Positions 3,290-18,925 of a stretch of DNA of 64,000 bases are shown in pieces. A program made the position numbers and the translations under genes. Location of the stretch: the NCBI RefSeq assembly GCF_029227855.1, contig NZ_CP074356.1; one strand, written 5' to 3'. The notes beneath the pieces were generated by a model. It was not told the DNA's origin and did no database searches. It was given only the letters and a program-made list of their open reading frames with translations. The DNA is from Escherichia coli (lineage in GTDB: Bacteria > Pseudomonadota > Gammaproteobacteria > Enterobacterales > Enterobacteriaceae). The stretch's first letter is position 1. The number at the start of each line of letters is the position of its first letter.

Positions 3290-3696
3290 GTGAAAAGGTG
3301 GTGTTCAGTCAACTGAGCCGTAAATTTATTGATGAGAACGATGCCACGCCCGCCGAGGCGCAGCAGGTGGTCTATTACAGCCTGGCGATTGGTCACCACC
3401 TTGGGGTTATCGATTGCCTGGAAGCGGCGCTCACCTGTCCGTGGGATGAATATCTGGCATGGATTGCCACTCTGGAGGCGGGCAGCGAAGCCCGCCGCAA
3501 AATGGAAGGCGTGCCGAAATATGGTGAGATCGTCATCGACATTAACCATGTGCCGATGCTGGCCAACGCATTCGATAAAGCCCGGGCTGCGCAAACTTCG
3601 CAGCAGAAAGAATGGAGTACAATGCTGTTAAGTATGCTGCATGATATTCATCAGGAAAACGCCATCTATTTGATGGTGAGGAGATTGCGTGACTGA
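3286..3696 (+). CDS. hycH: Formate hydrogenlyase maturation protein HycH
   Basis: 136 aa, recognised sequence, operon position. Confidence 0.9.
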
Positions 3697-4159
3697 CGTT
3701 TTACTCTGTGTTGGCAATAGCATGATGGGCGATGATGGCGCAGGTCCGCTGCTGGCGGAAAAGTGTGCCGCCGCGCCGAAAGGTAACTGGGTGGTGATTG
3801 ACGGCGGTAGCGCACCGGAAAACGACATCGTCGCTATTCGCGAACTGCGCCCGACACGACTGTTGATTGTCGACGCCACGGATATGGGGCTAAACCCCGG
3901 CGAGATCCGCATCATCGATCCGGATGATATCGCCGAGATGTTTATGATGACTACCCATAACATGCCGTTGAACTACCTTATCGACCAGTTGAAAGAAGAC
4001 ATTGGCGAAGTGATTTTCCTCGGCATCCAGCCGGATATCGTCGGCTTTTACTACCCGATGACCCAGCCGATTAAAGACGCCGTAGAAACCGTTTATCAAC
4101 GACTGGAAGGCTGGGAAGGGAATGGCGGATTCGCGCAGTTAGCGGTGGAAGAAGAGTAG
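3689..4159 (+). CDS. hycI: Hydrogenase 3 maturation endopeptidase
   Basis: 156 aa, recognised sequence; last gene of hyc operon. Confidence 0.9.
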   Translation: MTDVLLCVGNSMMGDDGAGPLLAEKCAAAPKGNWVVIDGGSAPENDIVAIRELRPTRLLIVDATDMGLNPGEIRIIDPDDIAEMFMMTTHNMPLNYLIDQLKEDIGEVIFLGIQPDIVGFYYPMTQPIKDAVETVYQRLEGWEGNGGFAQLAVEEE

Positions 4160-4215
4160 TTCGTAGACAAACATGTTCACGTTTTGGAATTTGGACGTGC
4201 AATTGTGACGTGTAG

Positions 4216-4244
4216 ACGGGTGTTTACATATTGTGAACACCCGT
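4216..4244. promoter_or_regulatory. Near-perfect 29-bp palindrome (acgggtgtt-N11-aacacccgt) upstream of the toxin gene; candidate TA operator
   Basis: 9-bp perfect inverted arms read directly from sequence, about 80 bp upstream of the 4326 start codon. Confidence 0.4.
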
Positions 4245-4325
4245 GTGATCAACTACTATAGAAAAATAAATCCGAAGGAATGGTAGTCCAGGTTTAGTCA
4301 TTCAGGCGCTAATAAGGAAGTTAAA

Positions 4326-4637
4326 ATGCACATCATTTCGAAAGCGCCATTTGAAGAGTGTGCGCGCAAATATCCTAACGACGCTCTGGCTCTACACTCA
4401 TTGTATCGGGTTATTAAGGAAACGGATTTTTCTACACCAGAAGAAATGCGAACGGCGTTTCCTAACCTCGACAATTTTAAATATCGCAACAAATGGTACG
4501 TTCTGGATGTCGGCGGGAACAATCTTAGGGTTATTGCCTACATAAACTTTGTTAATAAGCGGTTCTTTGTGAAGCACATAACGAATCACGCAGAGTATGA
4601 CAAACTGACACGTTACTACAGAGAGAACAAAGAATGA
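4326..4637 (+). CDS. HigB-family type II toxin (RelE/ParE superfamily mRNA interferase), paralog of E. coli HigB/YgjN
   Basis: 103 aa; shares with HigB the MH(L/I)I start, FP.LDNFKY...VGGN.LRV and H.EYD blocks; toxin precedes antitoxin as in higBA. Confidence 0.8.
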   Translation: MHIISKAPFEECARKYPNDALALHSLYRVIKETDFSTPEEMRTAFPNLDNFKYRNKWYVLDVGGNNLRVIAYINFVNKRFFVKHITNHAEYDKLTRYYRENKE

Positions 4638-5053
4638 CTGCTAATGCTGCACGCGCTGTTAAAGCAACAAGAGAACTGGTCAATGCAGTCCCCTTTCTGG
4701 GAGGCAGTGACTCAGAAGATGATTATCGTGAAGCACTGGAACTGGTCGAATATTTGATTGAAGAAGATGACACCAATCCACTTATCGACTTTCTGGCGAG
4801 CCGCATTGCAGAATATGAAAACAACAACGAAAAGTTTGCAGAGTTCGACAAAGCCGTTGCAGCAATGCCGGTTGGCGTGGCGTTACTTCGTACGCTGATT
4901 GATCAACATAATTTGACCTATGCGGATTTGAAGAACGAAATCGGCTCTAAATCTCTGGTCAGTCAGATTTTGTCTGGGCAACGATCCCTGACGATATCCC
5001 ATATTAAGGCACTTTCAGCCCGATTTGGCGTTAAGCCGGAATGGTTTCTTTGA
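4634..5053 (+). CDS. HigA-family antitoxin with C-terminal XRE-type HTH
   Basis: 139 aa; ATGA start/stop overlap with toxin; AVPFLGG...ALELVEYL...NPLIDFL...IGSKSLVSQILSGQRSLT blocks match HigA/YgjM. Confidence 0.8.
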   Translation: MTANAARAVKATRELVNAVPFLGGSDSEDDYREALELVEYLIEEDDTNPLIDFLASRIAEYENNNEKFAEFDKAVAAMPVGVALLRTLIDQHNLTYADLKNEIGSKSLVSQILSGQRSLTISHIKALSARFGVKPEWFL

Positions 5054-5079
5054 TTTTGACTGATGCCAAACCCAAGATT

Positions 5080-5104
5080 GCCCGATGCGCAACGCTTATC
5101 GGGC
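5080..5104. repeat. REP-like palindromic unit (gcccgatgcgcaacgcttatcgggc)
   Basis: 7-bp inverted arms with REP-like core, between antitoxin and ascB 3' end. Confidence 0.45.
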
Positions 5105-5131
5105 TTTCCTGGTTCGTGCGACGGTAGTTAC

Positions 5132-8022
<2,891 letters not shown>

Positions 8023-8281
8023 CGGATTTTATCCTGTTATCAGTAGGGTAGATGTAGTTGTTATCAGTCGACGTGACGGAAAAATGCCGATGCTGAAACG
8101 GAATTAGGAAACCGGTTTCACAAAATCATGAATAGTTGTCACTAAATAAGCAAGAGAGTTAATTGTTCATTTTTTATATTTGTGAAACCGGTCACCTGAA
8201 TATTTTTCCCGCCGATTGCGCAAGGACAATCGGCAAACGGTGCAGTACACTGCGTTGATTGCGTGTAAAGGGATGAAAATG

Positions 8282-9292
8282 ATGACGACGATGCTGGAAG
8301 TGGCGAAGCGCGCCGGGGTTTCAAAAGCGACCGTTTCCCGCGTGCTTTCAGGTAATGGCTACGTCAGCCAGGAGACTAAAGATCGCGTGTTTCAGGCGGT
8401 AGAAGAGAGCGGTTACCGTCCAAACTTGCTGGCGCGCAATCTGTCGGCGAAGAGTACTCAGACGCTGGGGCTGGTCGTGACCAACACGCTTTACCACGGC
8501 ATTTATTTTAGTGAATTACTGTTTCATGCCGCGCGAATGGCGGAAGAGAAAGGGCGACAGTTGCTATTGGCAGATGGTAAACATAGCGCCGAAGAAGAGC
8601 GCCAGGCGATTCAGTATCTGCTGGATTTGCGCTGCGACGCCATTATGATTTACCCGCGTTTTTTAAGTGTGGATGAGATCGATGACATCATTGACGCGCA
8701 CAGTCAGCCGATAATGGTGCTTAATCGCCGCCTGCGCAAAAATAGCAGCCATAGCGTCTGGTGCGATCATAAACAGACCAGCTTTAACGCCGTGGCAGAG
8801 TTGATAAACGCCGGGCATCAGGAGATTGCTTTCCTTACCGGCTCGATGGATTCCCCCACCAGCGTTGAACGTCTTGCCGGGTATAAAGACGCGCTGGCGC
8901 AGCATGGTATTGCGCTCAATGAAAAACTTATCGCTAACGGTAAATGGACGCCTGCCAGCGGGGCCGAAGGGGTAGAAATGTTGCTCGAACGTGGGGCTAA
9001 ATTTAGCGCGTTAGTTGCCAGTAACGACGATATGGCGATAGGTGCGATGAAAGCGTTGCACGAGCGCGGCGTAGCGGTGCCAGAGCAGGTGTCAGTTATC
9101 GGATTCGATGATATCGCTATTGCCCCCTACACCGTTCCGGCGCTCTCCAGCGTAAAAATTCCGGTAACTGAGATGATTCAGGAAATTATTGGACGGCTGA
9201 TTTTTATGCTCGATGGTGGGGATTTCTCACCGCCGAAAACCTTCAGCGGAAAACTGATCCGCCGCGGCTCCCTCATTGCTCTTTCGCAATAA
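8282..9292 (+). CDS. ascG: LacI/GalR-family repressor of the asc operon
   Basis: N-terminal HTH (LEVAKRAGVSKATVSRVL); start placed at MTTMLEV, ORF track begins 22 codons upstream. Confidence 0.9.
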   Translation: MTTMLEVAKRAGVSKATVSRVLSGNGYVSQETKDRVFQAVEESGYRPNLLARNLSAKSTQTLGLVVTNTLYHGIYFSELLFHAARMAEEKGRQLLLADGKHSAEEERQAIQYLLDLRCDAIMIYPRFLSVDEIDDIIDAHSQPIMVLNRRLRKNSSHSVWCDHKQTSFNAVAELINAGHQEIAFLTGSMDSPTSVERLAGYKDALAQHGIALNEKLIANGKWTPASGAEGVEMLLERGAKFSALVASNDDMAIGAMKALHERGVAVPEQVSVIGFDDIAIAPYTVPALSSVKIPVTEMIQEIIGRLIFMLDGGDFSPPKTFSGKLIRRGSLIALSQ

Positions 9293-9440
9293 ACATTGTC
9301 ATCACATGTCATCGTCACTAGTGTCGATGACATCGTTTTTCCTGCATTACAGAATTTAATTTCCTTAAATAACAGTAAATTAAAAACTGGCATGATTTGT
9401 GAATGTATCGGCGCATTAACTGTCATTGCTGGAGAATTTG

Positions 9441-18896: not shown

Positions 18897-18925
18897 ATGC
18901 CTGATGAGCGTAGCGCATCAGGCAT
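18897..18925. repeat. REP element (gcctgatgagcgtagcgcatcaggc) followed by a second hairpin at 18938-18962
   Basis: Canonical REP-type palindrome between srlD and gutM. Confidence 0.5.

Follow-up and report, generated by a model that had tools for sequence, protein, structure and literature searches.

Described HigBA systems and their operators

The K-12 higBA operon (ygjN-ygjM) is a toxin-first operon for which structures have been solved (5IFG, 6JQ4 and others). Its antitoxin, annotated as both antitoxin and transcriptional repressor, represents a type of 138-139 aa in which an N-terminal dimerisation and toxin-binding domain precedes a C-terminal helix-turn-helix (HTH). According to the review PMC10135005, which cites Jadhav 2020, the operator of higBA is recognised by a dimer of HigA in this K-12-type subfamily, and its affinity for HigA is similar to that for the HigBA complex. 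Upstream of the K-12 genes we find a first dyad (O1 of that operon), CATCCGTTGCCA-atc-TGGCAACGGATG, with 12-nt perfect arms around a 3-nt centre, lying over the -35. It is followed by TATCAT and then by an imperfect second copy, ATTGCCA-att-TGTCAAC, which abuts this -10.

The SehAB pair of Salmonella Typhimurium (STM4031-STM4030.S) is a module of the same K-12 type, SehB being 46% identical to K-12 HigA. SehB is a dimeric autorepressor of sehAB and binds its own promoter (PMC7160566). The same paper describes this promoter as carrying two palindromes, which cover the -35 and the -10; the original report (PMC3868539) has been retracted and therefore serves as context only. We liken SehAB to the module described below by protein family and by this promoter description, and the Salmonella orthologue that enters our comparisons (L025, HigA 79% identical) lies in a mobile-element context and not at the seh locus.

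The HigA/GraA antitoxins of Pseudomonas and HigA of Proteus vulgaris are HTH proteins that bind inverted repeats in the higBA promoter (PMC6987408, PMC6393540, PMC12266136). With the module studied here they share only this general logic of an HTH antitoxin acting on promoter inverted repeats: their HTH is N-terminal, their fold order is different and so are their operators, the P. aeruginosa operator TTAAC-GTTAA being without sequence relationship to the dyad that we describe. In P. aeruginosa, and for GraA by the comparison made in the same paper, two dimers encircle one operator of ~28 bp (PMC6987408).

The higBA module between hycI and ascB

The window, by which we mean the whole 64-kb stretch of E. 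coli DNA that was analysed, carries a pair of genes in the toxin-first order typical of higBA. The first (4326..4637, + strand) encodes a 103-aa toxin of the HigB family (Pfam HigB_toxin, E = 3.8e-23; 39% identical to K-12 HigB). The second (4634..5053, + strand), whose start overlaps the higB stop by 4 bp (ATGA), encodes a 139-aa antitoxin/repressor of the HigA family with a C-terminal HTH (Pfam HTH_3; 46% identical to K-12 HigA). The nearest solved structures to this antitoxin are those of the K-12 and Shigella HigA proteins (PDB 5IFG, 5YCL), and the toxin-first operon and the domain order of the antitoxin are those of K-12. The chromosomal site is another one, as the K-12 operon lies between fadH and rlmG whereas the order in the window is hycH, hycI (3689-4159, Pfam HycI), higB, higA and then ascB on the other strand. 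Our literature search found no paper on the higBA module of the hycI-ascB site.

The promoter allele of the window is present in 343 of 5426 complete E. coli genomes. A second allele, in which a hypothetical gene of ~250 aa stands between hycI and higBA, is found in 748 genomes, including Nissle 1917. About 20% of complete E. coli genomes, that of Nissle 1917 again among them, have the whole module, genes and promoter, in intact form, and the module is widespread in the Enterobacteriaceae. We compared the two E. coli alleles over window 4160-4325 and L001:1331-1503. HigA is 100% identical between them and the coding DNA about 97% identical, whereas the promoter and leader show about 27-50% identity outside two stretches that are both 100% identical, namely the operator core O1 discussed below and the block around the ribosome binding site (RBS), ATAAGGAAGTTAAAA. 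Upstream of the RBS block, the full identity takes the form of one 18-bp island, GTGTTTACATATTGTGAA. The step from ~97% identity in the coding DNA to ~27-50% in the promoter and leader suggests a recombination breakpoint at ATAAGGAAGTTAAAA.

The spot itself (window 4160-5130; loci L001-L004 and L022-L024) is hypervariable in E. coli, where four states are found: higBA alone, the ~250-aa gene together with higBA, an orphan higA (strain S88), and an empty site. In S88 the deletion begins within the hypothetical gene and reaches the 3′ end of higB, and the empty state retains short scraps of the longer allele at its junctions. Just past higA (window 5080-5104) we noticed a REP-like hairpin, GCCCGAT...ATCGGGC followed by TTTCC. 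The empty-site allele (L004) has this hairpin too, and it probably represents the terminator common to hyc and ascB, pushed downstream by the higBA module.

Between hycI and higB, 57 nt past the hycI stop, lies the 29-mer ACGGGTGTTTACATATTGTGAACACCCGT (4216-4244, no strand), which ends 82 nt before the higB ATG (4326), so that the dyad occupies the region 82-110 nt upstream of higB. Our repeat search finds in it two inverted 13-nt arms, 4216-4228 and 4232-4244, which are 92% complementary and stand 3 nt apart. Read from the outside in, it consists of perfect 9-bp arms, one T:G mismatch, ACA/TGT and a TAT centre. Sequence and repeat search thus agree with the sequence-only reading, which had reported at this place a 29-bp palindrome with perfect 9-bp arms and a partly symmetric centre. 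Palindromes of such quality (13-nt arms, at most one mismatch, loop of at most 5) are expected 0.23 times per 64 kb, from an analytical estimate and 60 first-order Markov simulations, and four distinct ones are observed in the window, 4216-4244 among them.

Another long palindrome, of 28 bp (ATGTCATCGTCACTAGTGTCGATGACAT, at 9306-9333, followed by CGTTTTTCC), lies 14 nt past the stop of the ORF 8216-9292 and looks like the intrinsic terminator of ascG, a gene that we name by its position; judging from this resemblance, long palindromes in the window tend to be functional elements. Long near-perfect palindromes are also found at 18897-18925 (ATGCCTGATGAGCGTAGCGCATCAGGCAT, REP-like) and 58653-58680 (TATCTGCCCCGTTTTAGCGGGGCAGATA, a terminator-like stem). 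For the 29-mer itself a REP/BIME or other dispersed repeat was rejected, since it is single-copy in the window and each of 342 E. coli genomes has it at a single place.

The 17-bp dyad and the putative higB promoter

The palindrome is identical in 333 of the 342 E. coli genomes carrying the window allele. The one divergent allele, that of strain WL297, has 2 substitutions in the 29 bp against 12 in 187 columns, which is about the background rate. As the site is nearly invariant and its single divergent allele changes at background rate, variation within E. coli is uninformative on purifying selection. We rely here on comparison with other genera. About 15 orthologous loci from other Enterobacteriaceae were compared, with HigA proteins 71-82% identical to that of the window, covering Leclercia, Mangrovibacter, Kluyvera, Yokenella, Phytobacter, Pluralibacter, Citrobacter, Salmonella and Morganella. 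These loci sit in unrelated contexts (transposases, prophage genes, various housekeeping genes).

In 14 of them the same dyad is found at the O1 position, between flanks whose identity is at random level. Upstream of higB these 14 loci share one layout, in which GTT(T/C)ACA-N3-TGTnAAC (O1) comes first. A stretch of 15 bp without conservation separates it from a -10 hexamer, which reads TATAGT, TATCAT, TATAAT or TAGAGT; a second operator copy, O2 (GTT(T/C)ACA-TAA-TGTAAAC), follows immediately, and the ATG stands ~18 nt further on. Over 11 genus-level loci, mean pairwise identity is 0.25-0.28 in the 60 bp upstream of O1, rises to 0.94 in O1, falls to 0.32 in the spacer between O1 and the -10, and reaches 0.77 in the -10 hexamer and 0.91 in O2, the leader standing at 0.46. 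O1, the -10 hexamer and O2 are the only conserved blocks upstream of the orthologous higBA genes. Moreover, in all fetched loci the dyad motif is found upstream of higB only: it travels with the toxin-antitoxin genes across hosts and genomic contexts.

Since only the inner dyad is kept across the orthologous loci, the conserved element is the inner 17 bp of the palindrome, GTTTACA-TAT-TGTGAAC (4222..4238, no strand), which we call O1. It agrees with the family consensus GTTYACA-N3-TGTRAAC at every position, and 4222-4238 is the only zero-mismatch match to that consensus in the 64-kb window. The single T:G mismatch of the palindrome falls at an operator position that is naturally T or C. O1 consists of two 7-bp half-sites around a 3-bp centre. 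Its half-site centres lie 10 bp apart, an inverted-repeat spacing that suits an HTH dimer, and the geometry of the K-12 O1 is alike. The dyad matches neither of two well-known regulator sites on direct reading: CRP recognises TGTGA-N6-TCACA, LexA CTGT-N8-ACAG.

The sequence-only reading had proposed that the palindrome is the autoregulatory operator of the pair, stressing its perfect outer arms. Our comparison redistributes this proposal. It is supported for the inner 17 bp, which are conserved across genera, overlap the predicted -35 and have their parallel in K-12, and not for the outer arms, which are allele-specific; the conserved part is precisely what had been passed over as the partly symmetric centre. 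On this comparative evidence, O1 is very probably the HigA operator of higBA. Autoregulation by the antitoxin would here be ordinary, textbook control, and the operator would be newly identified, for a HigBA module that is so far uncharacterised and for which we can now offer a promoter map and, in GTTYACA-N3-TGTRAAC, a testable operator consensus.

The HigA of the window and nearly all full-length orthologues have one and the same HTH segment, EIGSKSLVSQILSGQRSLTI, in keeping with a DNA target common to them. In K-12 HigA this segment reads differently (SKSMVSRVLSGKRKLTL), and the half-site is a different one, GTTGCCA as against GTTYACA, the two being partly shared as GTTnnCA; the difference between half-sites is paralleled by differences in the recognition helix. 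Antitoxin helix and operator thus appear to change together between the paralogues, in a two-point comparison that goes in the expected direction. As in the window, where the -35 is a predicted one, the K-12 palindrome is long, has a 3-nt centre and lies over the -35, with the differences that the -35 falls in the left half of O1 in K-12 and in the right half in the orthologues of the window module, and that the start-to-start distance of the two operators is 29 bp in K-12 and 38 bp in these orthologues.

The putative promoter can be read around O1. By eye, a predicted -35 hexamer, TTGTGA (4231..4236, + strand; TTGTAA in the orthologues), lies inside the right half of O1, 17 bp before a predicted -10 hexamer, TACTAT (4254..4259, + strand; TATAGT, TATCAT or TATAAT in relatives). 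The same 17-bp spacer is found in the other E. coli allele (TTGTGA, TATAGT) and in every two-operator orthologue. Transcription is predicted to start at ~4265-4267, and a Shine-Dalgarno sequence, AAGGA (4315..4319, + strand), lies within the block common to both E. coli promoter alleles. On this predicted start, O1 would be centred near -36 and O2, where present, would cover about -6 to +11. A consensus promoter and terminator scan of 4050-5200 called neither a promoter nor a terminator at the palindrome. It missed the putative window promoter because the two hexamers together agree with the consensus at no more than 8 of 12 positions, the -35 hexamer falling below the threshold of the scan, and the promoter assignment therefore rests on the orthologue comparison, in which the layout is kept.

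As the conserved block includes the predicted -35, its conservation could partly reflect promoter function, and one may ask whether it is nothing but promoter sequence, or else is bound by a different regulator of the host and not by HigA. We consider this very improbable. A -35 element does not require 17 conserved bp with dyad symmetry, and the dyad is repeated just past the -10, where no -35 lies. Furthermore, the motif moves with the higBA genes through unrelated contexts and hosts, and in the K-12 paralogue it changes along with the recognition helix of the antitoxin, which argues against both a promoter-only block and the site of another regulator.

With O1 as the operator, the following mechanism can be proposed. 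A HigA dimer would place one C-terminal HTH on each 7-bp half-site of O1, which it could occupy alone or as a HigB-HigA2-HigB complex, a stoichiometry that we infer. Since O1 contains the predicted -35 hexamer, bound HigA would occlude this element and block RNA polymerase, so that the operon would repress itself. Upon depletion of HigA the promoter would fire and replenish both proteins.

Outer arms and operator number

What makes the palindrome 29 bp long are its outer arms, ACGGGT (4216..4221) and ACCCGT (4239..4244), neither assigned to a strand. Both are allele-specific, the left one being kept in neither the other alleles nor the orthologues and the right one carrying one C>T change in WL297. 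They are peculiar to the window allele and probably needless for the operator. Beyond the core, the dyad of the window goes on for 6 bp; in 11 orthologues this extension measures 0-3 bp, and the other E. coli allele has none (0 bp). Six flanking pairs arise by chance about once in 4096, so that the 6-bp extension needs an explanation of its own, and the operator model does not account for it. The K-12 O1 likewise extends, by 5 bp, with flank sequences unrelated to those of the window.

One explanation of the whole palindrome would be that it forms a hairpin where the hyc (formate hydrogenlyase) mRNA ends; this hairpin would terminate or stabilise the transcript and insulate the toxin gene from read-through. 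The higBA genes indeed begin close behind hycI in the window allele, with the palindrome just 57 nt past the stop, and the + strand folds into a 13-bp stem with one G.U pair and a UAU loop, at -21.5 kcal/mol and with z = -3.95 relative to shuffled sequences. Such a hairpin would also give a role to the allele-specific outer arms, which lengthen the stem and which the operator model leaves unexplained. The two changes of WL297 that fall in the right arm are each a C>T and would still pair, as G.U, but two such transitions are weak evidence. At most, a hairpin would be a secondary role of the outer arms. The stem is not followed by a U tract (3′ flank GUGUGAUCAACUACUAUAG) and the terminator scan made no call there. 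A Rho-independent terminator at 4216-4244 was accordingly rejected, and a search of 3900-5300 with the curated Rfam covariance models gave no match with E <= 1. Moreover, the conserved 17-bp core is also found at loci that have nothing to do with hyc, and a second copy of it stands past the -10, which fits a DNA-binding site and not an mRNA 3′ end. We thus regard the hyc hairpin as very improbable as the reason for the palindrome and retain O1 as the probable operator within it.

The two-operator layout, with O1 at the -35 and O2 abutting the -10, is absent from the window allele. O2 is missing there, and the other E. coli allele has a degenerate remnant of it. A search of the window for a second operator with up to 3 mismatches gave none near higB, the matches elsewhere being at chance level. 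At 4175-4191, 47 bp upstream of O1, GTTCACGTTTTGGAATT resembles the operator at 10 of 14 specified positions (4 mismatches). It is probably a chance match, and the divergent WL297 allele gives no better one. The two-operator orthologues (for example the Salmonella locus L025, L007 from Leclercia, L009 and L013) agree with the window in their HTH sequence, in the O1 dyad and in the distance from O1 to the -10, but they carry O2 (GTTYACA-TAA-TGTAAAC) and have a leader of about 18 nt, whereas the window has a leader of about 60 nt and an O1 that has become 29 bp long. K-12 and the wider family have a second dyad next to the -10, and the window allele has none. As O2 is missing, repression in the window allele would rest on O1 alone, and it might be weak or differently organised.

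The loss of O2 and the allele-specific outer arms could also be taken to mean that the 29-bp palindrome as a whole is functionless, a neutral extension produced, for instance, by template switching at a quasi-palindrome, in an allele that has lost its autoregulation. The locus is indeed decaying in many E. coli strains, with toxin deletions and empty sites. In the window, however, the toxin and antitoxin ORFs are both intact, the O1 core matches the consensus perfectly, with 100% identity between two promoter alleles that have diverged elsewhere, and the arrangement of -35, spacer length and -10 is retained. We give this view hardly any credence for the palindrome as a whole; a neutral template-switch extension may nevertheless be the account of the outer arms alone.

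It is also conceivable, if unlikely, that the promoter has been rewired, O2 having been lost while O1 lengthened from the 17-bp dyad to a near-perfect palindrome of 29 bp with an extra role. By analogy with the ~28-bp operators of Pseudomonas HigA/GraA, the longer palindrome might accommodate a second HigA dimer. It might also bring a gain in affinity that compensates for the missing O2, or, as a hairpin in RNA or a cruciform, shield the toxin gene against read-through from the hyc operon, which is strongly inducible. Against affinity compensation and a second dimer stands the other E. coli allele, which is without a functional O2 and yet shows no extension of O1.

Variants with a single operator are not confined to E. 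coli. In Cronobacter (L028, 400-492) and Pantoea (L029, 400-492), the O2 abutting the -10 is kept and O1 is absent; in Cronobacter an unrelated palindrome, TTGTCGACAA, stands at the O1 position. The two-operator layout is therefore typical of this higBA family and not obligatory, and operator number is evidently evolvable. Loci with both operators, with O1 only (E. coli) and with O2 only (Cronobacter and Pantoea) form a natural series in which operator number could be related to repression strength.

The module erodes in other genera too, as seen from several decayed orthologues. Three loci (L011, L012, L020) have a missing or partial higB, and the consensus operator is absent from them. A fourth, L019 from Kluyvera genomosp. 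3, has a frameshifted higA and retains both O1 and O2.
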